The translations under genes were made by a program, and so were the position numbers. Positions 14,679-56,256 of a stretch of 56,256 bases of DNA are shown here, in pieces. This DNA comes from a virus (Duplodnaviria; Caudoviricetes). Below the pieces are notes generated by a model, which was not told the origin of the DNA, did no database searches, and saw only the letters and a program-made list of their open reading frames with translations. The stretch's first letter is position 1, and every line of letters begins with the position of its first letter. The stretch is taken from positions 1 through 56,256 of IMG/VR virus record IMGVR_UViG_3300042528_000130. The stretch is one strand, 5' to 3'.

Positions 14679-14679
14679 G

Positions 14680-15021
14680 TCAGCACCCCACGGAAATAAG
14701 CACATCTCCAGAGACCAGACAGACTCTGTGAGCAGAAGAGAACGCGATGTTCGGAAACAGAACATTCTGCACCTGAGCAGTGGCAGACGTGTTCTCTGCG
14801 TACGTGACTTGCTTCCACTGAAGAATAGTCCAGGCGCCGGTGAACAGGCACTTCTGAACTCCTCCTCCTCCTCCGCCAGCCGCTCTCGGCAGTGAGCTGG
14901 GGCTCCCCCCGCGCCGCGCTCTCTCGTAGCCCGACACAGCGGCATTGATCCGCTGCGCGTCTTGATGCGTGAACGAGACGAGCTGATTTCCCTTATTCGC
15001 CGGAATGTTCTTCCGCTTCAT
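14680..15021 (-). CDS. small tail protein
   Basis: MKRKNIP... reads on the minus strand (CAT at 15019-21, TCA at 14680-82); the ORF track labels it + in error. Confidence 0.7.
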   Translation of the reverse strand: MKRKNIPANKGNQLVSFTHQDAQRINAAVSGYERARRGGSPSSLPRAAGGGGGGVQKCLFTGAWTILQWKQVTYAENTSATAQVQNVLFPNIAFSSAHRVCLVSGDVLISVGC

Positions 15022-29877: not shown

Positions 29878-32105
29878 CCGCGACGGGCCTTGAGGAATGC
29901 GACCGTCTCGCGAGCAACGCTGGCTGATCTGCGAGATGTCTTCGGCCGAGAGATCTTTTTCTCGAACACTCCCTTGCTCGACGAGTAGCCCCCAGGAGAT
30001 TTCGCGACAAGCTTGTACCCCTTCGAGGACAGAGTCTTGACGTCTTCATCTCTCCACGCCTCGACGGCGACGTGCTTTGCGTTCAGTGCTTTTGCAGACT
30101 TCTCGACAGTATCGAGGTTTGTGCCGCCGTCCTGAAAAGAAAAGAAAACGGAAGCGCCTTTCGGCTTGTCTCCGAAGATGCTGCTTGCCGTGATGAACGC
30201 ATGCCCGCCATTATGCGTCTCGATCATCAGCGTCTTTCCGTCTGCCGCGAATGACGAATACTTCACCTCTCCATTTGTCATAATGTCGGCGACCTTCTTT
30301 ATCTGTTCATCCGACACGCCTGCGCTCTCTTTAATAGCCTGATATCGCTTTCCCTTCGGGCCGTTCACGTTGCCGAAAAACTCAGCTACGGACACTGCGG
30401 CGTCGATTAGCGACCCAAACACTTTCCCGCCAATCCAACCTCCCGCTGCTCCGCCTACGACTCCAGCAACTCCACCGGCAAGTCCGCCTGCGGCCCCCAT
30501 GACTGCACCAATGCGGCTTGCCTTTGAAGAAAAGCTTTCCTTCTCAGCCTCCGGCGACGGCTCCTTCTTTGCGCTGCCTTTTCCGCCTCCAGCGCCGCAC
30601 GAATTATCCAGCCCGCCGCCTTCCCCCGTCGGGCAAAACGCCCGCCGTTCTGTAAGAAACTCTGCCATTTCTTTCTTAACGATTGCGGCCCGCTCTTTGA
30701 TCTCAGAGCGAGACTCGACCTTCTTCACGCCTTCGGCGACGAAGTGCTGGTAGCTCCGCTTCGCCACTGCGACAGTCGAGTCGCCGTAGGCTGGGTACGT
30801 GACGGGGCCGCAATCGAGGAGAGACTTGATCTTCGTCACAGTCCGAATCGAGCGGCCGTTCTCGGTCGTCCACTTTTCCCCGCCGTCTGCCACGACGAAG
30901 CTGAAGCTTGATCCACGCAAGTCGCCTCTTTCGATTAGCTCGGCCAAATCTTGGCGAGACTCCGGAAGCAGGCACTCGTACTTGAGCCCCTTCGTGTCGA
31001 CGATGAGCCGCATCGTCGTCGGGAAACGTCCGAGCAGATGATCGGGCGAGTGATTGAACAGGCAGCGAGTCTGAAGAGGCTGGCCTTCGCTGTCTTCTCG
31101 CTTCTCGACGATGTCGAACGCTTCCGGCGCAATCCGCTCGACAAAATCCCCCAGCAGCAACGAGTCCTTGTGGAAGCGGGCCGCATACCCGACAACGTAC
31201 GTGCGAGGCTTGCCAGTCGAAGGATCGGCGCGGCGCTCGACCCGCAGAAGCTCCGGGTCTGCCTTCTCGACGTGGCTGAAGTTGCCGAGAAATCGTCGCT
31301 CGACTCCAGGCGGCTCGGTCGCGCGACGTTCTTCCGCGAAGTATTCTTCGATCACTTTTCGCAACTCCTCTGCGTCTGGTTCGCCCTCGATCCGTCGAAG
31401 GCACTCGTCTTTCGTGGACTCGACGTGTACGTACTTGGTCGGAATGTCCGACAACTGCCTCTTCATCTCGTCGCTGACGTTCGTGGTGATGATCCACGTC
31501 TTGCAGTCGTTCGAGCCTGAAAGAGCCTTCTTCAGAATAAGATTTCTGATATCCAGACAATAAGAGACGAGCTTCTCGTTCCTGCCGCCTCCCGACAGGG
31601 CGGACATGACCTTGTAGAAGTCGAAGACGACGTCGTTCTCGCCCTTGTGCTTGGCAACATAGTCCTGCTTGCCGCTACCTGGGGCGCCATGCACGACGTA
31701 GACGTTTGGTTTCATGCCGTGCGACGAGCCGTACGGACGAAGATCGCGGCCCTCTTTCTCGTCGGCGGCGTTCATCTGCTCGACGACTTTCCGAGCCCAA
31801 GCGTAGCCATTCGGGCCACCCCAGAGCTTGTTGGCGATTAGCCCGTTGCTGGGCCATCCCTTGTCTCCCTTGAAGAATCCTTCGGCCTTCTCGTCTGACT
31901 GGTGCCGGTCGAAGAACGCTTTCATCCGTCGCAGCGTCGACGGCGATAGCTTCACCCCGTTCGCCAAGTCTCTCGCGCGAGCAATGCCGACGGCTGTGCC
32001 GCCGCGGCCGTATTCGCGGCGGAGCTTCAGGCCGTACTCGGCTTCCTTCTTGACGCCCTGCGGCGGCGTGAAGTCGATGTGGGAGTATTTTTCAGGAGTT
32101 GCCAT
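29874..32105 (-). CDS. multi-domain HK97-type prohead protease
   Basis: Central GYAARF..FVERIAPEAF..LFNH..LLGR..GLKY..RGDL.GSSFSF..PVTYPAY; N-terminal helical domain and P-loop (GAPGSGK) domain; C-terminal tagged Gly-zipper domain. Confidence 0.9.
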   Translation of the reverse strand: MATPEKYSHIDFTPPQGVKKEAEYGLKLRREYGRGGTAVGIARARDLANGVKLSPSTLRRMKAFFDRHQSDEKAEGFFKGDKGWPSNGLIANKLWGGPNGYAWARKVVEQMNAADEKEGRDLRPYGSSHGMKPNVYVVHGAPGSGKQDYVAKHKGENDVVFDFYKVMSALSGGGRNEKLVSYCLDIRNLILKKALSGSNDCKTWIITTNVSDEMKRQLSDIPTKYVHVESTKDECLRRIEGEPDAEELRKVIEEYFAEERRATEPPGVERRFLGNFSHVEKADPELLRVERRADPSTGKPRTYVVGYAARFHKDSLLLGDFVERIAPEAFDIVEKREDSEGQPLQTRCLFNHSPDHLLGRFPTTMRLIVDTKGLKYECLLPESRQDLAELIERGDLRGSSFSFVVADGGEKWTTENGRSIRTVTKIKSLLDCGPVTYPAYGDSTVAVAKRSYQHFVAEGVKKVESRSEIKERAAIVKKEMAEFLTERRAFCPTGEGGGLDNSCGAGGGKGSAKKEPSPEAEKESFSSKASRIGAVMGAAGGLAGGVAGVVGGAAGGWIGGKVFGSLIDAAVSVAEFFGNVNGPKGKRYQAIKESAGVSDEQIKKVADIMTNGEVKYSSFAADGKTLMIETHNGGHAFITASSIFGDKPKGASVFFSFQDGGTNLDTVEKSAKALNAKHVAVEAWRDEDVKTLSSKGYKLVAKSPGGYSSSKGVFEKKISRPKTSRRSASVARETVAFLKARRG

Positions 32106-35100
32106 CGTCGCTCCATTCGTAATCGTCCAGATCCCCCTCGTCCCAAATCTCCTGCCACATTTCGTCGAGCCGCACGAGATCTGCTGGCGAGAGCCACTCG
32201 TCGCCGGAGCCGAGCGGCATGTCTCGTCTCTGTGCGCCGGAGCCGAACTTCCGGATAAACCTGTCCATGATCTTGGACTGCGGGCTCGACCTGTCCTTCA
32301 GGTTGAAGTAGACGTCCAAGTCTTCGCCGTTCTCGGCCCACCAGCGAGTTCCCTCGGGGGTGGCGTGCAGATCGAGCAGAGACTTGGCGTGAGACAAGTC
32401 TGGCGGGAGCTTGCTGACGAGGTGCTGCGGAAGTCGTGCGTCGAAACCCATGCGGGGCCAGATCGTGAAACCTCGCCAGGGATTGCTCGCCTTGCCTTTC
32501 CCAGAGTCGGCAGCGGCGCTTCCGGCGGCGTTGAGCGTGATCTGTGACGCACCGGCCTTGCGTGCTGACTCGACGCTCGACACCATCGTCCGGTAGAACG
32601 CTGCGGCGGCTGCGTGTCGCTTGGCTGGATCTCTGGCGATCTCGTCGGTGACGGTCGCTGTGTTCTGGAAAATGAGTACAGAGCCGTCTTCTCCCTTGCC
32701 GATCGCGGCTGAGTGATTCATCGCACCTTCGATGCCCGCGATGTCCGACTCGAAGTCGATGAAGACCGGAGTCTCTGAGAAGCCGAACCCGGAGCCGAAC
32801 TCAGTTCCAGGCCGCATGTAGACGTCAGAGTCCGGCGTTCCGCCTGCGGCTGCGACGGCAGTCGCGGCGTCGATGCCAGCCGATTCGAGGCTCGACTGCA
32901 CTCTCTGCGGAGCCTTGACGCTCACCGTGCCGTACTTGTCGGCGCCGTCGAACGGCGGCGGAGCGGTCTCGCGAGACGATGCTGGCCAGAGGATTTCGCT
33001 GTTCGACGACCAGCGGTCGTCTGATCCGGAGGCTGTGGCCGTGGCTGTGCCGTCTTCCTGGCACTTGTTGCCAGAGCCGAACTTGCCGTCCTCGTCACGG
33101 CCGCAGTCGGCAGACCTCTGCTCATCGTCCAGCGAATACTCGATCGTCTCTTCGTCGTAGTCGCGGCTCGTAATCTTTCTTGCGACGCGGCCTTGTGCCG
33201 TGATGACGACCGGCTTGACCTTCTTGACCTCGGAGATTGGGTATCCGTACTTTCCGTCAGGGCCGATGTAGTGCGGAGAGTCTTTTCCGACTCGATGCTG
33301 CTCGAAGTCGGCATCGAACTCTTCTTGAGTCTTGTAGAACTTCGGCTCGCCGATCTTCATGGTTCCGACGAGCGTCGCCTTGCCCTTTCCTGTGCGGACG
33401 ATTCCGACAGTCTTGCCGACGTACGGGCGAAGCGAGTTGGAGGGGCGAGTCTCTAAAGTCTTCTCTCCGGACAGAATCTGGCCCGTGAAGTCCTGATGCT
33501 TGTCGTTGATGTTGATGCCCATCTGGCACTTGTTGCCAGACCCGAACTTTCCGTCTTGGTCACGACCGCAGTCGGCGGAGCGAGACTCGACCAAATCCAG
33601 CGGCAGGAAGTTGCGTCGCTCTTCGACGTCGTCTTCGAGCGACTGAATCAAGGCCAGCACGTCGATGTCGAGGTCGGCGAAGTCCGCGTTCCACACCGAC
33701 TGTTCGACGTCGAGCGGATTGACGTCGAACTCCTCGTCTCGATCGTCGATCTCGCCCTGCTGCGCGTCTCGCCGAGAGGCGGGCGTAAACGGCTTGGCGC
33801 TCGGTTGATCTTTGCTTCTCGCGAGCCGTCCGCTGAGAACTCCATCGGCCGCGGCCGAGAAGAGCGAGTTGTCGGTGATGTTCGTCTGCGCGCCGAGGTG
33901 CTTCCAGAGCCGCTTCTCGTACTGCCAGAGCGCCGCCTGGATCTCGTCGATGTCGGCCTTGCGGCCGGTTCTGGCCTCGATCTCCGACTGCACGCGACGG
34001 AAGACTTCGCGAATGTTCTTTCTCGCCGTGCCGGTCTTCGGGTCTTGCTGCTCGTGAATCAGAGACTTGAACAGAGAGTTGCCAGCCTGATGCAGGGCAT
34101 GAATCTCTGGGTCTTCGTGCTTTCCGTATCCGCCGCCAGTGGGTCGGCGAGTCTTGCCGTGAGACCGCTCGGCGGCTGTCGCCCAGAGGAAAGCCGCGCC
34201 GTTCTCCTCGATCACGCCGGTCTTGGCCTGAATCTTCAGCGAGCGGACAAGCTGCTCTTTCGTAATGCCGTGAGTCTTGTCGACGCCGAACAGCTTCGCG
34301 CGGTTCCACTTTCCGGACTCGATCGCCTTGAGGATCGCCTCGGCCCGCTCCTTGGCCTGCTTCGGAGTCGATCGCGTTATGAGTTCTCCGGAGACCCGCC
34401 CGACAGACCTCATGAGCCAGCGATCCATCGTCAGGAAGTCGTGCTTCCCAGACAGGTTCGCAAAGAACGAGCCGATCTTCGGGCCGAAGATCGCCGCGAC
34501 CGGAACGACCTCATCGCGAAGCTCGCCTGACACCATCTGCTTTTGGTCGCCGCCTCGGTCGACAGGCAAAGACCACGCCGAAGCTCCGGTTCGCTGCTGC
34601 CACTCTTCTGCCTGCGACTTCCCGGCGAGCTTGGCGAGAGTCTTCTCGACGTTCCCAGCGGTAGTGTATCCGGACAAAAGCCGCCGAGTTCGCTCTTTGC
34701 CGAACGAGTCGAGCAGTCCCTGGAGTACTTTCAGCGACGCCGTGACGTCTCTTGCGCCGCCGCCGTAGTTCGACGGAACGACCGTACCGTGTTCGCGATA
34801 CATGCGATACAGGTCGTCGGCATCGCGGAGGTTCGCGTCTGGGCCTTGGCCCGTGCTAGTGATCGCGAGCAGCATCGTGAAGACGAACTTCGCGTCGTCG
34901 TCCGTCTCGAATTCCGGATACCTCGACGTCATCTTCTTCATCGTGTCGTCGAGGTCGGTGCTGTAGAACCCAGGGTCTACGCCAAGCACGTCATAGGCAT
35001 GCAGCGCGTCGTCTGTGAGGGACTCGGCGAGATAGTCCAGTTGGGCTTCGGGCAAGTCTGGCGACGCCGTGTCGATGATCGCGCCTGGGCCTGTCGCTCC

Positions 35101-38100
35101 AGTCTTCTGACGCTCTTCTTCGTGGCGATTCGCCAGGAACTGCCCGACTGCCTCGTGAGCAACGAACTGGCCGTTCTGCCGGTGAGTCTCAGGCGGAAAG
35201 ACAGGATCGCTCTCGGTGATCTTGTTCGTCGACTTGCCGCCGCGAGACACGAACGTGCGATCCCACAGGTCTGTCGTCGAGCCCGGAGTAGAGCCTTCCG
35301 GCTTGTTCGCCTTGAAGTCCGCGATCGCCCTGTCGCGAGCTTCTTTGTCGATGACCGCCACGGTCTTCTGACCGCCGATCATGACGTCGACGTTTCGCTG
35401 CTTGCCAGCTTTGGCCTCAGCCTGAACGCTCCCGGCCACGCCGCCTTCGCCGCCGCAGTCATTGCCCTGGCCGAACTGCCCGCCGTCCTGTCGATCTGCG
35501 TCGGTGCAGTCCCCGCGGAACTCAACGTCGTAGTCGTACCAGTTCCGGTTCTTGTTCCGCTCTTTCAGGCGAGTGAGAAGAGTCTTCATCTTCTTGTACC
35601 GCTTGTAGCCGAGACTCTTCTTGTCTTTGAATTTCAGCATCAGCGGGATGTTCTTACCGTTCTCGTCCCACCACTTCTTCCCCTCGGCAGACGAGATCAG
35701 CTCTTGAATCATCAGCGGCTCGCCTGAGTCGAGCTTGTCAACGATATCGAGAGCCCACTTCGGCGGATTGTCGTAGTTGTCCTCGCCTCGATTCGCGATC
35801 GCCTCCTCGGCAAACTCACGCAGCCCGTACGTATGAATCTTCCCCAGCTCGCCATCGAAGCCGAACTGTGGCCAGAGCCGGTAGCCCTTGAGCGGAGAGT
35901 GTGCGTCGCCAGCAGCCATCGTCTCGGCGTACTGAGCGCCGATGGACTCAGCCCTCGCAAGCGAGTCGGTCATCTTTTCGAGCAGCACGCTCGACACTCG
36001 TTTCACTGACTCTTCAGTGATCTCGCCGTCTTCCGGCCGGTCGACGTACATCTCGTCGTACGAGATCGCGAGCCCCTCTCCGTTGTCGAACATCGCGACG
36101 TTCACCTCGACGGCGCCGTCCTTGTTCGTGCCGTCGGGGGAGATCGGCATCGTGGAGTTCACGCGGATAACGTCTCCGTCGCCTTCGACGATGACTTTTC
36201 CGCCTTTGCGAACTCCGCCGCCGATCGCGACGACGTCGTCGAAAGACTTGAACGAGCCGATGTCGGTCATCGCGCTCGCCAGCTCGCCGACGTCCCTCAC
36301 AATGAAAGACTTGAGAACTTCGCCGCCGGTCACTGGCGGAGAGTCCTTGAGCTTGGCTCGGCCCCATTGGGCTTCGCCTTCGGACTCCCACCACGAATCG
36401 TCTGGCTTCGTTGCTGTCGCGGCGCCGCCATCTTCGGATGCGCAGTCGTTGCCTCGCCCGAACCGTCCGCCTTCTTGGCGACCGCAGTCGTCGCGGAATT
36501 CGACCTCGTCTTCGAGCCAGTCGATGATGCTCCGGTTCTTGTTTCGCTCCTTCAGGCGAGCGATGCGGGCCTTCATCTCCTCGTACCGCTTGTAGCCCAG
36601 GCTCGACTTGTCTCGGAAGTCGAACGTCAGGTCTGTGCCGCGGCCGTTGTCGTCCCACCACTTCTCGCCTTCGCGAGTCGCGATAAGCTGCTGGACTGTC
36701 AGCTCTTCCTTATCGAGCTGAGACTTCTGCGAGTCGTTGAGAGTGAGCTTCCCGTCGGCGATAGACTTCCGCAGCGCTTCGAGTCTGAATGATCGAAGCT
36801 TGGCGTCGAAGCCGAACTGCGGCCAGAGCCGGTAGCCCTTCGTGTTCGATTCTTTATTTCCAGCAGCGTACGTCGTCGCCCTGACGATCCCGCTCTTCTC
36901 GGCCAGACTCATCGACTCGGACATTCTCTGCATCAGCAGGCTGGCGATCTGAGACTGCTGGGCCTGCGACAGCTCAACCTCTCCTCCGCCGCTGTCCTGC
37001 GGGAACATCTCGCCGTAGTAGATCGTGCGCCCGCCGTTGTAGCCGCCGTCGTCCCACAGGAGGTCGATGTGCGTCATGACTTGCAGAGATTCGGGGTCGC
37101 TAGGTTCGAGGGGCAAGAACGAGTACGAAGACAGAGTCTCCCTGTTGCTGCTTGCCTTGAACTCCATCGAGCCGCCCTCTCTCGCGCCGCCTGAGAGCGT
37201 CGCAAGATCGTCGAGGGTGATCTGAAATGCCTTGAGCGCAGCGGCTGTGTTCTTTGGGGATTTGATCGTGACACTCTTGAGTCCGTCAGCCCCTGGAATG
37301 GCCAGCGGGGGCGACTCTTTAAGCTCTCTGCCGCTCATGGAGAGAGAGTCGTCTCCTGCGTTCTGCATCCAGCTATCATCGCGATCGCGAGCCTGGGGCT
37401 CGCTCGATCCGCCGCCGCCGCCAGCACAGTCGTTGTCTGCCGCGAACTGCCCGCCCTCAGTCCGGCCGCAGTCGAGGCCAGCCCGATACTCGACGTCATC
37501 GAGCCAATCGAAGTAGCTCCGCCTCTTGTTTCGCTCCTTGAGTCGCGGGAGCTTCGCCTTCATTTCCTCGAACCGCTTGAGGCCGAGCGAATCGCCGGAG
37601 AACTCGATTTTCATGTCGAGCGAGTCGCCGTTCTCGTCCCACCAGCGTTCGCCTTCGCGAGTCGAGATCAGCTCTTGAATGGTGAGGCTCTTGCGACTGA
37701 GCTTGCTGCTCTTCGCAACTCGCGGCGTCTTGTCGAGAATCTCTTTCGGAATCTTGGCGAACAGTTCCTGCGGGAGCTTCGCGTCGAAGCCGAACTGCGG
37801 CCACAGCCTGTAGCCCTTGTCCTTGCTGTCGGCAGAGCCAATGGCGAGCATCTGTGCGTGGCTGAAGCCTGCGTCGCTGGCCATGCTCATGGACTCCAGC
37901 ATGCGTTCCATCATCACGCTGGCGATGCGGTTCTGCGATGCTGCATCGAGATCGAGGCCGTCGTCTGGGAACATCGTGCCGTACTCGATGTACGACGAGC
38001 CGTTCTCCTTGCTGATCTCGATGCTCGACTCGACGCTGCCCTTGTCGGGATCGTCTGGGTCGATCGGGATCTGCGACGAGACAGAGATGTCGTTGTGCGA

Positions 38101-38448
38101 ATACGACGCCAGCCACATTTCTGCGCCGCGGATCGCGCCTCCTCCAAGCGTGACGATCTCGTCGATGTTCAGGCCGTGTTCAGACTGGGCGGTGCGGAAC
38201 TTCTTGACGTCTCGAATCGTGAGGGCTTCGAGCTTCTCGCCGCCCTTGACCGGGCTCGACTTCTTCAGGTCAGACGACGTCCACTCTTTCGTTCCGGACT
38301 CCTGCTTCCATGAGTCGTCCTTCGGGCGAGCAGCCACGGCTGTTCCGCCGCTGCCGGACGCGCAGTCATTTCTCGGCGCAAACTGCCCCCCGTCAGTCCG
38401 GCCGCAGTTGATGTCGGACGCCCTGAACTCTCGCTCGCGGAGAATCAC
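32092..38448 (-). CDS. 2118-aa polyvalent polyprotein (4 GNAT-like, 1 HhH/glycosylase-like, 1 ASCH domain)
   Basis: Between portal and protease (MuF position); six ExR + Cys tags delimit the domains. Confidence 0.85.
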   Translation of the reverse strand: MILREREFRASDINCGRTDGGQFAPRNDCASGSGGTAVAARPKDDSWKQESGTKEWTSSDLKKSSPVKGGEKLEALTIRDVKKFRTAQSEHGLNIDEIVTLGGGAIRGAEMWLASYSHNDISVSSQIPIDPDDPDKGSVESSIEISKENGSSYIEYGTMFPDDGLDLDAASQNRIASVMMERMLESMSMASDAGFSHAQMLAIGSADSKDKGYRLWPQFGFDAKLPQELFAKIPKEILDKTPRVAKSSKLSRKSLTIQELISTREGERWWDENGDSLDMKIEFSGDSLGLKRFEEMKAKLPRLKERNKRRSYFDWLDDVEYRAGLDCGRTEGGQFAADNDCAGGGGGSSEPQARDRDDSWMQNAGDDSLSMSGRELKESPPLAIPGADGLKSVTIKSPKNTAAALKAFQITLDDLATLSGGAREGGSMEFKASSNRETLSSYSFLPLEPSDPESLQVMTHIDLLWDDGGYNGGRTIYYGEMFPQDSGGGEVELSQAQQSQIASLLMQRMSESMSLAEKSGIVRATTYAAGNKESNTKGYRLWPQFGFDAKLRSFRLEALRKSIADGKLTLNDSQKSQLDKEELTVQQLIATREGEKWWDDNGRGTDLTFDFRDKSSLGYKRYEEMKARIARLKERNKNRSIIDWLEDEVEFRDDCGRQEGGRFGRGNDCASEDGGAATATKPDDSWWESEGEAQWGRAKLKDSPPVTGGEVLKSFIVRDVGELASAMTDIGSFKSFDDVVAIGGGVRKGGKVIVEGDGDVIRVNSTMPISPDGTNKDGAVEVNVAMFDNGEGLAISYDEMYVDRPEDGEITEESVKRVSSVLLEKMTDSLARAESIGAQYAETMAAGDAHSPLKGYRLWPQFGFDGELGKIHTYGLREFAEEAIANRGEDNYDNPPKWALDIVDKLDSGEPLMIQELISSAEGKKWWDENGKNIPLMLKFKDKKSLGYKRYKKMKTLLTRLKERNKNRNWYDYDVEFRGDCTDADRQDGGQFGQGNDCGGEGGVAGSVQAEAKAGKQRNVDVMIGGQKTVAVIDKEARDRAIADFKANKPEGSTPGSTTDLWDRTFVSRGGKSTNKITESDPVFPPETHRQNGQFVAHEAVGQFLANRHEEERQKTGATGPGAIIDTASPDLPEAQLDYLAESLTDDALHAYDVLGVDPGFYSTDLDDTMKKMTSRYPEFETDDDAKFVFTMLLAITSTGQGPDANLRDADDLYRMYREHGTVVPSNYGGGARDVTASLKVLQGLLDSFGKERTRRLLSGYTTAGNVEKTLAKLAGKSQAEEWQQRTGASAWSLPVDRGGDQKQMVSGELRDEVVPVAAIFGPKIGSFFANLSGKHDFLTMDRWLMRSVGRVSGELITRSTPKQAKERAEAILKAIESGKWNRAKLFGVDKTHGITKEQLVRSLKIQAKTGVIEENGAAFLWATAAERSHGKTRRPTGGGYGKHEDPEIHALHQAGNSLFKSLIHEQQDPKTGTARKNIREVFRRVQSEIEARTGRKADIDEIQAALWQYEKRLWKHLGAQTNITDNSLFSAAADGVLSGRLARSKDQPSAKPFTPASRRDAQQGEIDDRDEEFDVNPLDVEQSVWNADFADLDIDVLALIQSLEDDVEERRNFLPLDLVESRSADCGRDQDGKFGSGNKCQMGININDKHQDFTGQILSGEKTLETRPSNSLRPYVGKTVGIVRTGKGKATLVGTMKIGEPKFYKTQEEFDADFEQHRVGKDSPHYIGPDGKYGYPISEVKKVKPVVITAQGRVARKITSRDYDEETIEYSLDDEQRSADCGRDEDGKFGSGNKCQEDGTATATASGSDDRWSSNSEILWPASSRETAPPPFDGADKYGTVSVKAPQRVQSSLESAGIDAATAVAAAGGTPDSDVYMRPGTEFGSGFGFSETPVFIDFESDIAGIEGAMNHSAAIGKGEDGSVLIFQNTATVTDEIARDPAKRHAAAAAFYRTMVSSVESARKAGASQITLNAAGSAAADSGKGKASNPWRGFTIWPRMGFDARLPQHLVSKLPPDLSHAKSLLDLHATPEGTRWWAENGEDLDVYFNLKDRSSPQSKIMDRFIRKFGSGAQRRDMPLGSGDEWLSPADLVRLDEMWQEIWDEGDLDDYEWSDDGNS

Positions 38449-41400
38449 AGAGTCACCTTGTCGTCGGTGATCTCGTAGAACATCTGCATGACCTCGCCAG
38501 AGTAGTCGTGTCCAGACAATACGCCCGCGATAACCTCAGCTACGAACTCTCGTCCGTTCACGGCGGCGTACCGCGAGACTTCAGCCTCGATCATCGACCG
38601 CTGCTCGGCCGTGAACTCATGCGACAGAGACGTCGCGTATGAAGCTGGGTCGCTCTTCGCGTGTGTGCGATGGGCCAGTTCGTGGAGAACCGGATTCGGC
38701 TGCGATGTCCAGCCGTCACGCTCAAGCATCGAGGCGTCGGGCGAGACGTAGACCGCGTCTTCTTCTGACGAGTACGACGCCAGAAGCTGCCCGATCGAGC
38801 GGACTTCGATCTTAGGCAGAGAAGAGAAGTGGTTCGACGCAGCCGAGATCAAGCCTTGGGCTGCGCTTTCTCCGCCATAATCCGCTTCGCTGCATCTCGC
38901 AGTGCTTCTGCGATGTCCTTCGCCGCCATCCCCGGAGGGAAGTCGAAGCGAACGAGGTTCTTTTTTGGCTCTTGTTCGTCGGCCATCGTACTCTTCCTTT
39001 CGGATTTCCTTCTTCTCGTTGAGATCCCAGATCGCGAGCTGGCTCGTGCTTTCTGCGGAGTCGATCGCGTCGTCGATGCTGTCGAACTTCTCTGAGAGAT
39101 CGAGGTACACCTTGCCGGTGGCCTGATCGACCCAGCCCCCTAAGTGTAGCGTCGGACGCTCGCCGAAGTGGGATTTATTCTCTTCAAAAAATTTCGTGAT
39201 GGCTTCTTCCGTCACGTCGTCGGCCGAGTTCAAGATTGTCTCCGACTCTGGAACGACGCTGACCATGTAGCCAGACGTCGGACTGTTGGCGGCGACTGGA
39301 TGAACCGAGAAGCCGCCCGAGTCTCGGATGCTCTTGAGGGCCGCTTCCGTGACTTGGCCAGACTTGATTCCGCTGGAGCCAGATCCGTCTCCGCTGGCGC
39401 ACGTGTTCCCGCGGCCGAACCGGCCGCCATCAGCCCGACCGCAGTCGTCGCTGCGAGACTCTGGATTCGTAGTCTTAGTCTTGGAAAGCCAGGGCCTAGT
39501 CTTGAGGTGCTGGTAGCCCAGCGGCTCGTCTGAGTCTCGCCCGTTATCTTCAGCACGAGACTGCTTCTTCCGCTTGGCCAGCTCGCTGCGAATAACGTCG
39601 GCGCCGACCTTCGAGGCGTACGCGTTCTGCGGCGCGAAGTCGCCCGTAAGCTCGTAGACCGCGTTCTGGCCGAACGTCTCGGCGAACAGGGCTGGCCACG
39701 CCTCTTCGGGGAGAGTCGAGGCGTGCGTGAGCATGCCGTTGTACTCGCCGTTCGTCGAGAACGAGTAGCCGCCGCGGACGTGGGCCACGAGATCATGAAC
39801 GACCCGGAACAGGTCGTTCGCAATCATGGGCTCGCCATCGGAAGTCTTGAACTTCGTCTCGCGGAGCATCGGGTGGTTTTCGGTCGCGGAGCCAGTCCCG
39901 AATCCTCGTTCTGTCATGAAGAACTTAAACTCACCAGACTTGGCGACTTCTTCCCGCATCTTGTCCGAGTTGGGCTTCGTGCTTCCTGGCGGATCTCCGT
40001 AGGGCTCGCCTTCGCCTCGCCACGCACTGACTCGCAGGCCAGACTGCGTCAGGGCCTCGTACTGGCGACCGATCTCGTCGACGAGCGACGAGTACGCAGC
40101 TTCTGCCTCTGGCGAGAGCGGCTTTCCGCTCTGGGCATTCTGCTCCTGGGCGAACGTCTCGATCTGCTGCCGCGGCGGTGTCTCAGCTTTGCCCTTCGAG
40201 CGATCCCAGACTGAGGCTGGGTCTTTGCCGATCGAGGCCACGACGCTATCGACGGCGTCGCGATACGGCTTCGTGCCGGACGGAAAGGTGCGGTCGCTGG
40301 CCTCGGACTTCGGTGCCTTCGGAGACGACTCCTGCTCGCCCGGGCCTGCGCCGTCTTTCTTCGCGCAGTCGTTGCCCTGCCCGAAACGCCCGCCGTCTTG
40401 GCGACCGCAGTCGTTCGACCGCTTCTCTTCGACAGCTTCGACTTCCTGAAGATCAGGCTTCTTCTCGCTGGCTTGGCCCTGCTCGGCAGGATTCGGAGAC
40501 TTGCCAGTCTTGACCTCTGGAAGACTCGGCACGCCACCGGCAGCTTCCGGCGGGGCTCCGGCTCCAGCTCCAGCTCCACCCATCATCGCAGCCATCGGAT
40601 CTGGCTTCGGCTTAACAGCATCTTCGAGCGTCTGCATGTTCATGCCGACGAAGTGCTTGTCGCCGTTCTCGACCGGAGCGAGCCCCTCGGCGCGGCGGCA
40701 GTCGTTGATCGAGTAGATGCCGAGATTCGTCATCGTCGAGTAGAACGACGCGCGGCTGTTCGAGTTGCCTCGCATCAGCCCCTTCGTGTCGAACTCGGCG
40801 AAGAACACGTCGTCGTTGTAGATCAGCGACCGCGAGATAGCCGACTCGATTCGACGGAGCCACGGCAGCAGCGTGTAGGTGACGAACTCTTGGCCCTGAG
40901 TCTCCAAGTCTCCGCCGCTCTGGCCCTGCACGAGCGCGAGTGGCAACCTGTAGATTCGCGCGATTTCTTCGCTCTGAAATCTCCGGCTATCTATGAACTG
41001 ACTCTGCTCTTGCGAGAACCCGATGGGCTCGGCTTTCAGGCCGTTTGTGAGGACTGCCGTCCGGAAAGCTCGGTCAACGCCCCTATGAAGTCTCTCCCAA
41101 TTGTCGCGGAGTCGCTCGGCCGCTTCGGGCGAGAGCGATCCGTCCGTCTGAAGCACGACGCCAGGGCGAGCCGAGTTCGCCCAGTACTTCGACGCGTGAA
41201 TCTCACACGCTCTCGCCAGGGCGATCGCCTCGCGGCCGACTTCGACCGGCACCATGCCCTTGATGCCGTCAGGCTCGGGAGTCCAGCGGACGTGCATGAC
41301 CTGATCTTGCGTGTACCGCTCCAGTCTTCCGGTCTCCGGATTCGTGTAGCTGTACCGGAGTCGGCCGTTTTCGAGACGCTCGACCTCCATCCGGCTCGGA

Positions 41401-41843
41401 TGAAGATTGTCGAGGGCGCTCACGGCTCCGTACTTGCCAGACCGAATCAGGCTGTACGAGTTCCCCCACAGAGTCAGGAACATGACGATCTGCTCGAAGA
41501 ACTCGAACTTCGTCTGCCACTCGTTGGGCGCGAACGACAAGACTTTGTAGAGCGGCAAGTCTGTGGCTGGCTCTTTGCCGCCGTCCTTCGTCCGACGCAT
41601 GACGTGCAGAGGCAGGCCCGAGATCGTCTCGGCGAGAATCCGGCAGCAGGCCAGCACGACAGTGGACTGGAGGGCGCTGTCTGGCGTGATCCGGACTTCC
41701 GCGGCTGTGCGCGAGCGTCCGAGATACGGCTCGTCGCTCGTGAGAAAGTTATTCCAGAGAATGCTCCGGAACTCAGGCTCTGGAGTGGTCAGGCCGCGTT
41801 CGGGTGTCCAGACAATGTCGGACAGGGCTCGCTCTTCGCTCAC
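38445..41843 (-). CDS. HK97-family portal protein with ~700-aa C-terminal cargo extension
   Basis: AL..TV.AC..ILAE.IS.LP, L.GNSY, LHP..M, EEIARIYRLP and LLPWLRRIE portal motifs, then two Cys tags and a zincin HELAH. Confidence 0.92.
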   Translation of the reverse strand: MSEERALSDIVWTPERGLTTPEPEFRSILWNNFLTSDEPYLGRSRTAAEVRITPDSALQSTVVLACCRILAETISGLPLHVMRRTKDGGKEPATDLPLYKVLSFAPNEWQTKFEFFEQIVMFLTLWGNSYSLIRSGKYGAVSALDNLHPSRMEVERLENGRLRYSYTNPETGRLERYTQDQVMHVRWTPEPDGIKGMVPVEVGREAIALARACEIHASKYWANSARPGVVLQTDGSLSPEAAERLRDNWERLHRGVDRAFRTAVLTNGLKAEPIGFSQEQSQFIDSRRFQSEEIARIYRLPLALVQGQSGGDLETQGQEFVTYTLLPWLRRIESAISRSLIYNDDVFFAEFDTKGLMRGNSNSRASFYSTMTNLGIYSINDCRRAEGLAPVENGDKHFVGMNMQTLEDAVKPKPDPMAAMMGGAGAGAGAPPEAAGGVPSLPEVKTGKSPNPAEQGQASEKKPDLQEVEAVEEKRSNDCGRQDGGRFGQGNDCAKKDGAGPGEQESSPKAPKSEASDRTFPSGTKPYRDAVDSVVASIGKDPASVWDRSKGKAETPPRQQIETFAQEQNAQSGKPLSPEAEAAYSSLVDEIGRQYEALTQSGLRVSAWRGEGEPYGDPPGSTKPNSDKMREEVAKSGEFKFFMTERGFGTGSATENHPMLRETKFKTSDGEPMIANDLFRVVHDLVAHVRGGYSFSTNGEYNGMLTHASTLPEEAWPALFAETFGQNAVYELTGDFAPQNAYASKVGADVIRSELAKRKKQSRAEDNGRDSDEPLGYQHLKTRPWLSKTKTTNPESRSDDCGRADGGRFGRGNTCASGDGSGSSGIKSGQVTEAALKSIRDSGGFSVHPVAANSPTSGYMVSVVPESETILNSADDVTEEAITKFFEENKSHFGERPTLHLGGWVDQATGKVYLDLSEKFDSIDDAIDSAESTSQLAIWDLNEKKEIRKEEYDGRRTRAKKEPRSLRLPSGDGGEGHRRSTARCSEADYGGESAAQGLISAASNHFSSLPKIEVRSIGQLLASYSSEEDAVYVSPDASMLERDGWTSQPNPVLHELAHRTHAKSDPASYATSLSHEFTAEQRSMIEAEVSRYAAVNGREFVAEVIAGVLSGHDYSGEVMQMFYEITDDKVTL

Positions 41844-43195
41844 AGTACGATGATCTCCGGATCTGGCTGTCGCATGCCTGCTTCGGCGTCACTTGCGAGT
41901 GCGAGCGCCATGACGAGAGCGACCATGCCGTCCACTCGCTGAGGGCTCATCGCACTCGGTTTCACGATCTTGATGTACCCGTCAGAGTTAGTCTTGGTCA
42001 CGCAGTTCGATGCCATCCAGTTCAGGATGGGATTGTCAGCAGTTCGCAGCCGCCCCTGCGCTATGAGAGTTTCAAGAGCGCGGGTCGGTGAATTCATCTG
42101 CGAGAAATGCTGCGAAAAGCCTATCACGTCAAGTCCCTCAGTCTGAAGTTGTTGCTGAAGGTGGTGGGCGTTGTGCGGGTCGGCCGCGATCTTTCTGACC
42201 TGATGGTCTTTCGCGAACTGAAGAATGTCGCGACGAATGAACTCGTAGTCGCACGTGTCGCCTGGAGTCAGGAGCAGGCCGGTCTTCTTGCTGTCTCTCG
42301 CCCAGAGCGTGTACGGAACTTCTTCGCGACGCTGCGTCGCGTTGTCTTCTGGGATCCAGAACTTGCAGATCACGTCGAAGACGTCTTCGCCTGTCTCTTC
42401 GTCGGCGATCTTCGAGACAGCGACGAACGCGTTCACGTCCCAGGTCTGGGCTAAGTCGAGCCCGCAGTACCAGACGCGAGACTTGTCCGGAGGCGGGAAG
42501 TCTCGCTTGCAGCGTTCCCAGCGGGTCAAGTCCACGAACTTGTTCGATCCCTGTATCCAGACATTGAGCCTGTATCTGAGGAAGTCAGCGAGCTTCGAGT
42601 TGTTCCCCTCGGCCTCTCGGACGTCGGCCTTGAAGCTCTCCTCGTCCATCGTGACGCCGAACGAGGGATTCGCGGCTCGCCAGACTTCCGGGTCTCGGTA
42701 GTCGTCCTCGGCGGTCGCTCCGGCCACGAACCCGAAGAACTGCGGATCGTGGTGCGGGTCTTGCATGCACTTGAGGGCATGCTCGTGCAGCTCGTAGCAG
42801 ATCGACGTCCGGTCAGTCCCGGCTGTGGTGATCGCGAGAATTAAGCTCTGTGATCTGGAAATTCCACCGTAACGAACCGCTGCCCATAGCTTCCTGTCCT
42901 TGGCGGAATGGATCTCGTCATAGCACAGCGAGTGGATATTCAGGCCCTCCTGGCGACCGGAGTCGCTGGAGATGACCTTCCAGAACGAGTGCGTCGGAAC
43001 GCACGTGATCGTCTTCCGAGAGTCGACGATCTCCAGCATCTCGGACAGGTGCGGGCTCGCCTCGACAAGCTCCTTCATCTGCTTGTAGACGATCGAGGCC
43101 TGCTCGCGGCTCGTGGCACAGCCGAAGCACTCGGCTGACGCTTCGCCGTCAGCGACGGTCATGTACAGGCCGATGCCGGAGAGAAGGGTAGACTT
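41840..43195 (-). CDS. terL: terminase large subunit, C-terminal part (from the Walker A KST)
   Basis: KSTLLSGIGLY, A.SREQA.IV, EGLN..CYDEIH, ITTAG, GLDLAQ, RVDG.VA; same frame as the N-terminal part. Confidence 0.92.
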   Translation of the reverse strand, partial: KSTLLSGIGLYMTVADGEASAECFGCATSREQASIVYKQMKELVEASPHLSEMLEIVDSRKTITCVPTHSFWKVISSDSGRQEGLNIHSLCYDEIHSAKDRKLWAAVRYGGISRSQSLILAITTAGTDRTSICYELHEHALKCMQDPHHDPQFFGFVAGATAEDDYRDPEVWRAANPSFGVTMDEESFKADVREAEGNNSKLADFLRYRLNVWIQGSNKFVDLTRWERCKRDFPPPDKSRVWYCGLDLAQTWDVNAFVAVSKIADEETGEDVFDVICKFWIPEDNATQRREEVPYTLWARDSKKTGLLLTPGDTCDYEFIRRDILQFAKDHQVRKIAADPHNAHHLQQQLQTEGLDVIGFSQHFSQMNSPTRALETLIAQGRLRTADNPILNWMASNCVTKTNSDGYIKIVKPSAMSPQRVDGMVALVMALALASDAEAGMRQPDPEIIVL

Positions 43196-52731: not shown

Positions 52732-52834
52732 GTCCCTACCTTTTCGCTGTAGCGTCAACCAACAGTCAACCAACGGTCAAGCGACCCTTGACCGTTCCTG
52801 CATTTCTGCGACCACCTGTCAGAAAATGACAGGA

Positions 52835-53373: not shown

Positions 53374-53779
53374 TCCATTTCCCAGAACTTGATAGGCCAG
53401 TGTCTATCAGAAATGTGACTGATTATTGAGTTTTATCCTGTGCGTCGGCAGCTATTCCGGCCGATCCGCCAGTTCATCGGTCGATATGCCACTGCCCCGT
53501 CCCATCGTCGCCAAGCCGTTGTCGGGCTGCGTTACGCCTGGGGCTGCCTCGCCTGCCCCGTTGCGGCACCGTAGGGCGCGGTGCCAGGGCGGGCGAGGTT
53601 GTGATCGGTAAGCAAAAGATGCCATCTTTTATAACTGATTGTATTGTGATTCGTTCGTTTTTCGTCGCTTTTGACCTACGTTTCGGGAACGTGTCGCCGT
53701 GCGTTACTGATGGCCCCAGCCGCGTGCCATCCTGTAGGAAAAATGGACGATATTTCCTACAGCCATGTCTTTAGCCAAT

Positions 53780-53974
53780 CTATGTAGCGTCACTGAGGTT
53801 GCCATACTCGTCTACCGGCAGCGTCGGGTCTGGTCGGTGCAGGTGCGGGAACACCCACTCTCCGCACCGCTTGCAATCCTCCCCAGACGGCGATGCGTGA
53901 TCCCGGCTGGCAGACTCCCACTGCTCCCCGCACTCGTCGCACATGAATGATCGCCAGCCCTGCATATCAGTCAT
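53780..53974 (-). CDS. small Zn-ribbon protein
   Basis: CDECG..CKRCG. Confidence 0.55.
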   Translation of the reverse strand: MTDMQGWRSFMCDECGEQWESASRDHASPSGEDCKRCGEWVFPHLHRPDPTLPVDEYGNLSDAT

Positions 53975-54106
53975 CGCCCTACATGCGGCGTGTGCCGCCT
54001 CCTCATTATTTTGATTCTGGTGATTGTCTGGAGCCAGAAAACAGGGCCGAGCGAGACAATGCGATAACGGCATTATCAGTCAGGGTAATGGAATAATTAG
54101 ATTGTT

Positions 54107-54490
54107 CTATTGCCTTGCAATCCATTCTCCGGCGACGTGCAATCTCCGACACGCCACCAACATATCCGTCTCGCATCGCTCGGCGTCCTGCCGCGTAGCA
54201 ACCCGCGAACTCCTGACGACCCGCCATTCCGCAACCGGGAACGAGTCTCGCAACTGCTTCAGTCTCCTGCCCGTATCGTGCGCGACGCCGATCTTCCAAA
54301 AGCCCGTGTCTCCGACAACTGCCTCCAACCAGTAAACGTCGCATCCGTATCGCGGATTGGTTGAGGTCGCGCGTGGTTCGACGTACTGCTTCCAGCAATC
54401 CTCAACCGACCCGAGCCACGTCGCCAGGTTTTCCTCAACGCGGATTCCGGCGTCCATCGCGGCATAGGCGAACTGCTGGCGGTGACTCAT
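54107..54490 (-). CDS. GIY-YIG/T5orf172-like nuclease domain protein (cassette 1)
   Basis: DVYWL..FWKIGVA....RRLKQL..E......GEW. Confidence 0.7.
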   Translation of the reverse strand: MSHRQQFAYAAMDAGIRVEENLATWLGSVEDCWKQYVEPRATSTNPRYGCDVYWLEAVVGDTGFWKIGVAHDTGRRLKQLRDSFPVAEWRVVRSSRVATRQDAERCETDMLVACRRLHVAGEWIARQ

Positions 54491-54584
54491 GGCAATAGAA
54501 CCAGCGGATGCAGCGGACTCGCGATGCCGTCTGCTTGTGTAGTTTCGTCAGCGGTCGCGAGCCGCTGATCCTGCGTGTTCTGCG

Positions 54585-54785
54585 TCACTCGGCAACAGTC
54601 CATCTGACACCGGCCTTATCCAGTGCCGCCTTTGCTTGAGCCGAGTGGAAAAACCAACCGGATGCAAAATCAGGCCGCAGCATCGCCGGGTTCGCTGGTG
54701 GCTTCGGAAGCACCACAACTGGTGATGCAGAACCAGCCGATGCAGGAGACGGCTCGGCACCGCCCTGCTTGTTGTCAGTGTCCAT
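54585..54785 (-). CDS. hypothetical protein (cassette 2; starts inside attC)
   Basis: N-terminus EPSPASAGS encoded by the attC arm. Confidence 0.55.
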   Translation of the reverse strand: MDTDNKQGGAEPSPASAGSASPVVVLPKPPANPAMLRPDFASGWFFHSAQAKAALDKAGVRWTVAE

Positions 54786-54819
54786 GTCTCGCCGCTCCTG
54801 ATCTCGCGCGTTCTGTGGA

Positions 54820-55158
54820 CTACTTCGTTCGCTCCAGCAGCCCCCGCAGCGTGGCGACCACGCCCGCGCTCGCTGGCTCGCCGTCGCCCTCGTAGTCCTC
54901 TATGAGTCGCTGGATCGCAGTCCGCTCCGCGTCGGTGAGGGTTGGCTGAGGCTGGAGGTACAGTGCAACTCGCTCCGACTTAGGCCACTTCCCGAATGGC
55001 AAAATAATCTGCGCATAACCAAATGGCCGCCCGTACTCATCGACGGCCTGATAAGCCACCGGCTCCACAGAACCAGTCGATGCAGGAGACATCGCCACGC
55101 CGTCCTGCGAGTCGATGTCGCGGGCCAGGAGCCGCAGGGGGGTTGTCAGCGTGTCCAT
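54820..55158 (-). CDS. hypothetical protein (cassette 3)
   Basis: SPASTGS encoded by the attC arm; EPVAY..PTLTDAER..ATLRGLLERTK. Confidence 0.6.
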   Translation of the reverse strand: MDTLTTPLRLLARDIDSQDGVAMSPASTGSVEPVAYQAVDEYGRPFGYAQIILPFGKWPKSERVALYLQPQPTLTDAERTAIQRLIEDYEGDGEPASAGVVATLRGLLERTK

Positions 55159-55254
55159 GACCCCAGCCTACCGAGTGGTGCAATCCTGTCCACGCTCGCC
55201 GTTCGCGAATTGCGAAAGCCTTACCTAGTCGATGTAGCGCGATTGTGTGTAGCG

Positions 55255-55476
55255 TCAATCGTAGTGGCTGGACTTCGCACACCGCTTGCAGCAGATCGGG
55301 TGCATGGTGGCAACGTCGGTCGCCGCAGGGTAGACGATTGGCGAAGCCTTGGTGTTCAGCAACGTGCGGGTCTTGCTGCCGCAGTAGCTGATGCCGCCAA
55401 GAACAGCGGTGTGGTACTTGCCGCGACCATCAGCAGGCGGGAAGAAACTCAGGGGCTTTGCTGTGATGTGTGCCAT
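55255..55476 (-). CDS. hypothetical protein (H..CG..C..C)
   Basis: RBS GGAGG; strong promoter upstream. Confidence 0.6.
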   Translation of the reverse strand: MAHITAKPLSFFPPADGRGKYHTAVLGGISYCGSKTRTLLNTKASPIVYPAATDVATMHPICCKRCAKSSHYD

Positions 55477-55494
55477 GTCGTCCTCCGTTGCTAG

Positions 55495-55524
55495 ATTATA
55501 TGTCCGGTATCGGCCATAATGCAA
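55495..55524 (-). promoter_or_regulatory. sigma70 promoter with operator in the spacer
   Basis: TTGCAT-N18-TATAAT; the spacer holds the palindrome GTCCGGTATCGGCC. Confidence 0.7.
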
Positions 55525-55532
55525 GAGGGGCT

Positions 55533-55739
55533 TTAGACAGGCTTTTTTGGGCTTCTTTCCCGCTCCCACGCGGCTGCGGCCTCACGGTCTACGAGGTAGT
55601 TCCGGCCAGCCTTGGCCCCTCGCACCTTGCCAGAGGCGACTAGCCGCCGCATGTGCCGCTCGTCCACACCAGCGAGGAGTGCCGCCTCTGGGACGGAGAT
55701 CAGATTGCCAAGGTCTAGCGGTTTCGATTTCTTTGCCAT
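55533..55739 (-). CDS. HTH_17 DNA-binding protein
   Basis: ISVPEAALLAGV....MRRLV..GKV...K.GRNYLV. Confidence 0.8.
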   Translation of the reverse strand: MAKKSKPLDLGNLISVPEAALLAGVDERHMRRLVASGKVRGAKAGRNYLVDREAAAAWERERSPKKPV

Positions 55740-55801
55740 GCCCGCATTGTAGCCGGTAGCGGACGTGCCGCGTCTCTACACTGTGGGTGTAGTGCCGTCA
55801 C

Positions 55802-56110
55802 TCACGCGGGCCGCACCGGCGGCACAAACAGCCGCTCCAGTCCTGCCTTCAGATCGCTACCCAGAACCTCAAGAACGCGGGCCTCAACCTGCGCCTGCGT
55901 GTAGTCGCCCGCCGCGTCGTATGCGGCCCTCTCCCACAAGACGAGCGGGAACGGGCAGGGGAGAATCCTTGCCACGCAGGACTTCCGCTTGGCGTTGTCG
56001 ATGATCGTCACATCAAGTTCAGTGAGCGTGATCGGCTTCTGGGGTCGCACTTCGCCGGTGCTGCGAGTAATGGCTGGGGGCTGGATGGTGATCGGGGATT
56101 GCAGATTCAT
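55802..56110 (-). CDS. hypothetical protein
   Basis: LVLWE..AYDAAGDYTQ.Q.E.R family motif. Confidence 0.65.
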   Translation of the reverse strand: MNLQSPITIQPPAITRSTGEVRPQKPITLTELDVTIIDNAKRKSCVARILPCPFPLVLWERAAYDAAGDYTQAQVEARVLEVLGSDLKAGLERLFVPPVRPA

Positions 56111-56111
56111 G

Positions 56112-56256
56112 CTAGATGACTCCCAAGATTGAAGAACCGTTGATGCCTTTTTCGTAGGCGAAAGAGATGCTTCCGTAAGTACCGTAGAATCCGCCTGATA
56201 TCTGTGCGGCCGCAGAGGAAAGCGAGAACGTCGCGTTGCCGGTGACGGTGGTTCGA
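56112..56256 (-). CDS. 3' end of a gene truncated by the window edge
   Basis: Open frame ending ..KGINGSSILGVI*. Confidence 0.5.
   Translation of the reverse strand, partial: RTTVTGNATFSLSSAAAQISGGFYGTYGSISFAYEKGINGSSILGVI

Follow-up and report, generated by a model that had tools for sequence, protein, structure and literature searches.

Integrons are bacterial devices for gene capture and shuffling. In an integron array the bases that follow the G/TT of one attC site (the slash marks the crossover) belong to the next cassette, and they pair with the R'' box of that same cassette. In the Vibrio VCR arrays, which are sedentary chromosomal integrons, the attC repeats are uniform. Groups of at least two attC sites with no integron integrase gene (intI) nearby are defined for IntegronFinder as clusters of attC sites lacking integron integrases (CALINs; Cury et al. 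2016, PMC4889954). Run on 10,705 NCBI phage genomes, IntegronFinder returned three complete integrons, one In0 and 17 CALINs, with two attC sites again the minimum for a CALIN; same-direction orientation is called 'most typical' in two phages, and IntI1 recombined five of the six phage attC sites tested (Qi et al. 2023, PMC9892861). Phage-borne attC arrays are, from that work, already known. Here we describe an array of repeated attC-like elements in the IMG/VR virus record IMGVR_UViG_3300042528_000130 (Duplodnaviria; Caudoviricetes), all 56,256 bases of which were analysed and are called the window below. The elements are very probably attC-type sites that bound mobile cassettes. With somewhat better than even confidence, we read the whole as an integron-type cassette array without an integron integrase (a CALIN) in a temperate phage, served by an IntI of the host.

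The window holds two complete sites 232 nt apart, a further half-site and no intI, which is the composition of a CALIN, and neither it nor any of 10 related viral records holds what marks a complete integron, an intI with its characteristic insertion next to the array. Like other CALINs, the locus has at least two same-strand attC sites a few hundred bases apart and G/TT boundaries, but its carrier is a phage, its open reading frames (ORFs) lie on the bottom strand, the R box is GTTCT, GTTAT or GTTAG, and the first bulged base is G rather than C. The CALINs of Qi et al. are likewise attC clusters in phage genomes without IntI. As far as the text of that paper describes them, the present arrays differ in having up to 15 sites, in forming one uniform attC family in uncultured phages, and in having gene starts inside attC. 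The main text of PMC9892861, as far as it was searched, makes no mention of Planctomycetes, antisense or opposite. A literature search, which for that paper took in the main text, found nothing on arrays of Planctomycetota phages, on antisense cassettes with starts in attC, or on arrays of this size in phages. With the Vibrio VCR arrays the phage arrays share a lineage-specific, uniform attC family that flanks many small genes of unknown function; they differ in having no intI-attI-Pc platform, in being short, in their phage carrier and in their reversed ORF polarity. Reports of phage attC clusters have so far been confined to rare and small examples from sequenced isolates; in the phages described here, cassette exchange appears to be a regular route for trading accessory genes (DUF551, HNH and DNA-binding proteins).

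The elements share a 17-mer, AGAACCAGYSGATGCAG, which occurs in exactly three copies in the window, all on the plus strand (54497, 54729 and 55069). When up to three mismatches were allowed, shuffled sequence gave a mean of 0.6 matches, and three were reached in 3 of 100 shuffles. Two of the copies belong to complete sites, imperfect palindromes of ~90 nt, and the third to a half-site (Table 1). An earlier note on this DNA, made from the letters alone, had described two complete attC-like palindromes and a truncated third, and its coordinates and motifs stand. On the plus strand sites 1 and 2 read AGAAC, 5 nt, GAT, a bulged G, 6 bp, a bulged A, a stem-loop, CTGATC, 6 nt and GTTCT, so that the hairpin features of attC are present: inverse core boxes, an L box with bulges, an unpaired spacer of 5/6 nt and a variable loop. 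As DNA, site 1 folds into an imperfect hairpin with two bulged bases at -26.5 kcal/mol (z = -3.9, with 0 of 200 shuffles as good). A covariance model of the family, R1, scores site 1 at 73.6 bits (E 1e-19) and site 2 at 93.1 bits (E 1e-25). Site 3 forms no such hairpin and is undetected by R1. An Rfam scan of 53700-55500 found no hairpin family, its only match (isrG, E 0.77) being taken as chance.

R1 was built from relatives of the window array. A scan of viral contigs for the conserved 17-mer gave 120 loci, mostly chance matches, of which about 12 are related and carry the whole element with differing but mutually complementary stems. After 16 copies had been aligned, RNAalifold recovered the L box, the stem and both bulges. 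At E < 1e-3, R1 found 52 same-strand sites in 10 sources (the window and 9 of the 12 viral loci searched), in arrays of 15 (record G001), 7, 5, 5, 5, 3, 3, 2 and 2 sites spaced 233-1017 nt apart (median 357). Sites are 50-99 nt long, and the forms of 50-57 nt are almost loopless. In the G001 array (locus L129), 8 of the 15 sites are near-identical 50-nt minimal attC with almost no loop (2926, 3193, 3787, 4195, 4901, 5651, 5933 and 6575), and the genes behind them have their start outside the site. Truncation like that of window site 3 is also seen at the last site of the L007/L131 array. Parts of the window array are present in 20 public runs from 15 studies, with no RNA data set among the runs listed; among 50,697 GenBank phage records, array DNA had no blastn match.

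Conservation in the family follows the hairpin. AAC and GTT are invariant in all of the 63 sites with E < 1e-6, and the core variants of the family are GTTCT, GTTAT, GTTAG, GTTCG and GTTCA. Standard pairs make up 95.6% of the stem pairs, against 78% in shuffles (0 of 500 reached the observed value) and 31-43% when the partner columns were slid. Compensatory changes are found at 12 of 19 stem pairs, and both sides have changed in 190 cells, as compared with 49 in shuffles (again reached by 0 of 500); the alignment was fitted to the model, which favours structure, and the compensatory types are still plain in the raw sequences. The only stem positions that are commonly unpaired are two outer R-box pairs (10 and 18 of 63), as expected from a hybrid R' box.

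A class 1 integron provided calibration. It was fetched (L169, an E. coli plasmid) using the IntI of a Pirellulales metagenome-assembled genome (MAG), which is 53% identical to IntI1. Run unfiltered on 2.1 kb of L169, R1 placed its best three matches directly after aadA2 (19 bits, E 9e-5), dfrA12 (12.8 bits, E 0.007) and orfF (6.2 bits, E 0.7). Each match is on the strand of the genes, and its spacer and two bulges align to the model positions that they occupy in the phage sites; the plus strand of the window is therefore the canonical attC top strand. The earlier note had proposed a check with attC covariance models; here one phage-derived model finds both the phage arrays and three of three class 1 attC sites. 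The bulged positions 16 and 23 in attC-aadA7 agree with the phage sites, in a source that also has VCR2 as a model attC site (PMC5027507). One difference lies in the first bulge: read on the top strand, it is C in each of the three class 1 sites, whereas the sites from phages and from Planctomycetota have G.

The cassette boundaries carry a second signature. Three inverted repeats in the window each bracket one gene body: 54104-54117 with 54488-54501 (14 nt, 93% complementary), 54577-54588 with 54722-54733 (12 nt, 92%) and 54810-54819 with 55064-55073 (10 nt, 100%). They agree with the claim that each cassette start pairs with its own end. The pairing is general in the family. For 45 pairs of adjacent sites in 14 loci, the matches beyond GTT extend over a median of 5 bases against the next R'' and of 2 against the R'' of the same site (Mann-Whitney p = 2.4e-11). 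Compared pair by pair, the run of matches with the next R'' was the longer in 36 cases and the shorter in 4, with 5 ties (Wilcoxon p = 2.8e-7), and random cross-locus pairs of R boxes had a mean run of 1.78. In G001, for example, GTTATGC is followed by GCATAAC, and GTTAGCG by CGCTAAC. This signature supports the view, already put forward in the earlier note, that the units would once have been circular molecules, cut and rejoined at G/TT.

The same signature bears on a simpler explanation, that a repeated 5' gene module (hairpin, ribosome-binding site, start and leader) was spread by homologous recombination and that no site-specific sites are involved. The conserved arm is identical over ~20-40 nt, enough for phage recombinases, ATG and AGGAG lie within the element, and no recombinase is tied to it. 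However, exchange inside a repeat cannot create complementarity between the start of a cassette and the R'' at its far end. The 50-57-nt variants, which are without the ATG (0 of 11), still have every feature of attC. In geometry the sites match class 1 attC, and sites of this type adjoin true intI genes. This explanation is already strongly disfavoured and we consider it extremely improbable.

Cassettes recur in other surroundings. All-against-all blastn found four that are common to contigs from different samples. One of them, present in two phage contigs (L130_c6 and L084_c1), is 98.6% identical over 278/279 nt; starting from the TT after G/TT, 60 of 60 positions are identical, and the 120-nt flanks, with 41 and 36 matches, are at background and have differing attC types. 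The identity of the other three is 82-96%. In public run X2, a site 3 with a complete hairpin leads into the start of cassette 2, giving the order 3 then 2; the joints run from 55109 back to 54565 or 54577 across 28 or 40 letters, the shorter side of the 54565 joint being 42. Another contig of X2 keeps the window order over 54577-54874. In the further contig joints 54107>54498, 54582>54909, 54582>55067 and 53785>54835, the two sides are separated by unknown letters or are 20-32 nt long, and other arrays share these arms. In assembled contigs of other phages the units recur with a different order and different neighbours. The earlier note had asked whether related phages gain, lose or reorder genes at the GTT boundaries; the shared cassette and the alternative order of X2 indicate that they do. 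With tblastx, the 2-kb flanks of nine arrays gave two upstream matches and no downstream match, and the neighbouring genes are mostly unconserved and do not anchor the arrays.

These observations also bear on the idea of a frozen relic, a piece of a host chromosomal integron taken up once by an ancestor of the phage and passively inherited since, whose hairpins were kept only as translation or RNA elements. It would account for the lack of IntI in all 11 viral records searched, for the degenerate terminal sites of the window and L131, and for window site 1 having no loop ATG. A relic sits badly with a cassette shared at 98.6% between unrelated contexts, with alternative cassette orders in near-identical DNA of one sample, and with array sizes of 2 to 15 and largely differing content among related phages. 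The arrays also lie at differing places relative to the integrase, and R-box, spacer and bulge positions are intact across 63 sites. We consider a frozen relic very unlikely.

At the left end of the array, the R'' extension of site 1 recurs as its exact reverse complement, GTTCTATTG, at 54104. The first G/TT is preceded by hairpin-free DNA in five arrays. The hairpin-free boundaries of four of these (L129, L128, L052 and L143) contain two TAT(A/C)CGG-like direct repeats and a TAAnnAnnnG/TT end; the window boundary is the most divergent. The attI1 of L169 has two GTTA(T/C)G repeats and then CTAAAACAAAG/TT, and as read from this plasmid it ends in ...CCCTAAAACAAAG/TTAGCC. By this resemblance of pattern, which lends weak support to the attI-like site that the earlier note had suggested at 54063-54108, the left boundary may be an attI-like or a secondary insertion site. 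IntI inserts cassettes outside att sites (bioRxiv 10.1101/2022.09.11.507474), which, from what is described there, would give a first cassette a route into a GTT-containing site and would fit a hairpin-free left boundary; the left boundaries here differ in showing some attI-like repeat architecture. Site 3 was considered as an attI-type partner and rejected, as its complete hairpin form exists in run X2.

The genes run opposite to the usual cassette polarity, as the earlier note had seen in the window. The attC bottom strand carries the longest ORF of 38 of 43 cassettes, and the cassette genes are co-directional with the leftward genes of the phage. Within long sites (at least 85 nt), an in-site ATG opens an ORF that extends at least 40 codons past the site in 35 of 46 cases; in short sites it does so in 0 of 11. 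The conserved arm is read as ...A-S-x-G-S (...GS) in 33 of these 35 frames. On the bottom strand each gene has its attC on the 5' side, so that a cassette carries the gene along with its start module. Translation is predicted from the ORFs and from AGGAG plus ATG to start in the attC loop. In a long site (~90 nt), the L' arm would provide a Shine-Dalgarno-like AGGAG, the loop the ATG, and the L''-R'' arm the end of a leader of 17-20 residues (...S-P-A-S-A-G-S). A hairpin in the mRNA would occlude AGGAG, and translation might then be coupled to that of the upstream gene. Reversed polarity and start codons in the loop touch on what the attC variable loop is for and on how a gene and its attC come to be joined.

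In the window, ORF2 has a minus-strand AGGAG in the L' arm (~54795-54799 on the plus strand), 9 nt upstream of its start, and the leader MDTDNKQGGAEPSPASAGS. The peptides SPASAGS and SPASTGS, which the earlier note had picked out as recurring, are the conserved arm in the minus-strand reading. Site 1 reads SAASAGS, has ACC where relatives have ATG, and has no in-frame start upstream; ORF1 is therefore taken to start at the ATG at 54490, just past the site. ORF3 has an alternative start at an internal ATG (55089-55091). ORF1 gave a weak match to T5orf172 (GIY-YIG-like, PF10544; E 0.0014, 19.5 bits against a cut-off of 20), and no match in PHROG and NCBIfam searches. The 45 cassette proteins include seven DUF551 proteins and one each of HNH, HTH_17 and HAD hydrolase type, the rest having no match at E 1e-3.

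Cargo and polarity point to a cassette pool internal to phages. Such a pool could have a reversed integron logic of its own, with attC as a 5' expression module and the cassettes perhaps shuffled by the phage's own Xer-like recombinase, which we think unlikely. If this were true, any cassette dropped into the early operon of a phage would be translated at once, and an integron-like system would have evolved or been rebuilt without the IntI domain.

Under the host-IntI reading, a tyrosine recombinase of IntI type would excise and insert the cassettes, acting on the bottom strand in its folded form. We lean towards an IntI supplied in trans by the host, during lysogeny or infection; a host enzyme is proposed because no phage record encodes IntI. 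The other candidate enzyme is the phage's own Xer-like recombinase, which would make cassette movement phage-autonomous and independent of the IntI-specific domain. Xer recombinases act on folded single-stranded DNA of the CTX phage, which counts for this candidate. The window and four of the five larger array-bearing records encode homologous Xer-like recombinases of 284-328 aa (29-57% identity) with the full catalytic set R-K-H-R-H-Y, and in record G005 the gene is ~1.1 kb from the array. In 5 of 80 further viral loci of the integrase family, attC sites begin 0.2-1.5 kb past the stop of the gene. In addition, the attC family is uniform across phages of many samples and rare in host genomes, and its cargo is of phage type.

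The window protein, which is not an IntI, lies 49 kb from the array on the contig (about 6 kb if the window were circular). It has no TIGR02249 match, its best NCBIfam match is XerA at 44.5 bits against a cut-off of 220, and a phmmer search of the PDB gave no match. Several points speak against the phage enzyme in this role. As the earlier note had maintained for the integrase at 4963, these phage recombinases lack the IntI insertion of ~55 residues (ALERKYP...WQWVFP), which is present in three host IntIs. In the solved IntI-attC complex this insertion contacts the bulged bases. Only 7 of the 80 further loci have an R1 site within 10 kb, a count that weakened an initial idea of tight integrase-array coupling. 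The window and G005 differ in the order and orientation of integrase and array, which leaves no fixed platform, and no PF00589 gene accompanies the attC sites of G006 (168 kb, estimated 82% complete). An integrase is in any case needed by a temperate phage. Non-IntI recombinases near attC have been concluded not to be integron integrases (Cury et al. 2016, PMC4889954). On balance we hold it unlikely that the phage enzyme moves the cassettes.

In three other viral contigs, a single attC-type site lies 200-330 nt after the stop of the Xer-like integrase (L183 11092-11180, L239 11050-11140 and L246 11170-11226, all on the minus strand), the integrase ending near 10840-10850. A phage attP is often found at such a place, and the site may belong to attP or be a one-cassette array at a hot spot.

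A host IntI, the enzyme we prefer, has candidates in Planctomycetota. A genome scan found the element in 12 MAG contigs, five of which are labelled as this phylum. IntI proteins above the TIGR02249 cut-off are encoded in four of five MAGs with the site type and in 0 of 14 control genomes. On contigs without similarity to the phages, intI has an R1 site (50.3 or 48.7 bits) at a distance of 0.5-0.8 kb, so that the comparison with Planctomycetota integrons suggested in the earlier note does find the phage site type beside true intI genes. These host sites are closer to the attC consensus (e.g. GCCTAAC and GTTAGCC). The host is probably a Planctomycetota bacterium. Phage attC and Planctomycetota IntI make a concrete, testable pair in a phylum whose integrons have hardly been studied at the bench.

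In both G012 and G014, intI is co-oriented with the adjoining R1-type attC, the 'inverted integrase' arrangement. As far as inverted-integrase integrons are described, these two Planctomycetota MAG contigs resemble them; the likeness concerns the putative host integrons and not the phage arrays, which have no intI. The two genes (G012:C50:5633-6577 and G014:C320:1379-2323) have one in-frame stop each (TAG and TGA), and they may be pseudogenes or contain sequencing errors. Bins of a Cyanobium sp. isolate (L141), a Methanomicrobiales MAG (L135) and a Beijerinckiaceae MAG (L136/L143) hold array-bearing contigs of the phage group. Mis-binning or co-culture of the Planctomycetota host is probably the cause, and such labels are unsafe for host range.

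Several points weigh against a CALIN of attC sites that is worked by a host IntI. The full consensus RYYYAAC / GTTRRRY is absent from the family, the window having ATAGAAC/GTTCTGC and GCAGAAC/GTTCTGT; the GTTCT core had been noticed earlier and the window boxes bear it out. On the bottom strand the first bulge would be C, not the G of class 1 sites. Site 2 folds like site 1, with an energy that is ordinary against shuffles (z = -0.25 on the plus strand and -0.9 on the minus strand). The evidence for mobility is all comparative, and a short-read misjoin inside identical attC arms of 20-50 nt mimics the product of an attC x attC exchange; contig order is weaker evidence than the R-box signature because an assembler cannot create the latter. 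A scan of 53600-56256 for sigma-70-like promoters and for terminators found 0 and 0. On the host side, R1 had matches in 9 of 151 Planctomycetota genomes, with 1-2 sites each, in a scan with strict filters that scored 28 candidates per genome, and the phage site family is not obviously the main chromosomal attC family of the host. The host assignment rests on MAG bins of mixed taxonomy. The other seven MAG contigs with the element are labelled Verrucomicrobiota, Beijerinckiaceae, Cyanobium, Longimicrobiaceae, Methanomicrobiales MAG, 'Proteobacteria' MAG and unclassified. Finally, the cargo is phage-like, and its polarity is opposite to that of the one host cassette examined.

Table 1. Coordinates of the array and of other features in the window
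Feature	Position	Strand	Details
Left (5', top-strand) array boundary	54045-54104	+	AT-richer, no hairpin, ends in G of first G/TT
Cassette 1 (TT to G)	54105-54577	+	ORF1 body + attC site 1; R'/R'' pairing
Cassette 2	54578-54810	+	233 nt; ORF2 body + attC site 2
Cassette 3	54811-55110	+	ORF3 body + degenerate terminal half-site
attC site 1	54495-54583	+	R'' ATAGAAC 54495-54501; R' GTTCTGC 54577-54583
attC site 1, bulges and crossover	54510, 54517	+	G 54510, A 54517; crossover between 54577 and 54578
attC site 2	54727-54816	+	R'' GCAGAAC 54727-54733; R' GTTCTGT 54810-54816; crossover 54810/54811
Site 3	55067-55110	+	R''-L'' half only (ACAGAAC, CAGTC, GAT[G]CAGGAG[A]C...), then divergence
ORF1	54107-54490	-	127 aa; starts just outside attC site 1
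ORF2	54585-54785	-	66 aa; ATG 54783-54785 in attC site 2 loop; no family match
ORF3	54820-55158	-	112 aa; reads through half-site as SPASTGS; no family match
Tyrosine recombinase, Xer-like	4963-5832	+	289 aa; PF00589 E 2e-10; sole PF00589 match in record
Tape measure	16027-21525	-	1832 aa
Major head protein	26313-27797	-	
Head protease	29874-32105	-	
Portal	38445-41843	-	1132 aa with long C-terminal extension
Large terminase	41840-43162	-	
Excisionase-like HTH_17 gene	55533-55739	-	PF12728 E 5e-7; TIGR01764 E 3e-7
Whole window	1-56256		IMGVR_UViG_3300042528_000130, linear

The structural genes, the tyrosine recombinase and the excisionase-like gene together make the window part of a temperate tailed phage. 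The excisionase-like gene lies upstream of the array in the direction of transcription and is context, outside the array. No close isolated phage was found, the large terminase subunit being at most 38% identical to any in the 50,697 GenBank phage records; with this and the lack of a blastn match for the array, a named relative or host is not obtainable from GenBank phages. CheckV estimates the completeness of the window at 57%. Record G005 (55,115 bases, estimated 97% complete) has structural genes colinear with those of the window, circularly permuted, and as the window is close to it in size it may be more complete than the CheckV value. In addition to the tape measure and portal genes, very large minus-strand ORFs are found at 7362-14945 (2527 aa) and 32092-38448 (2118 aa); a PHROG search with the latter gave no match at E 1e-5.

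Three exact plus-strand copies of TGTAGCGTCA lie at 52748-52757, 53783-53792 and 55248-55257, each at a gene boundary. With one mismatch allowed, there are 4 matches in the whole window against 2.5 expected. The exact copies cluster in the 2.5-kb region of small genes around the array, and the motif may serve the early region as an operator or a promoter element.

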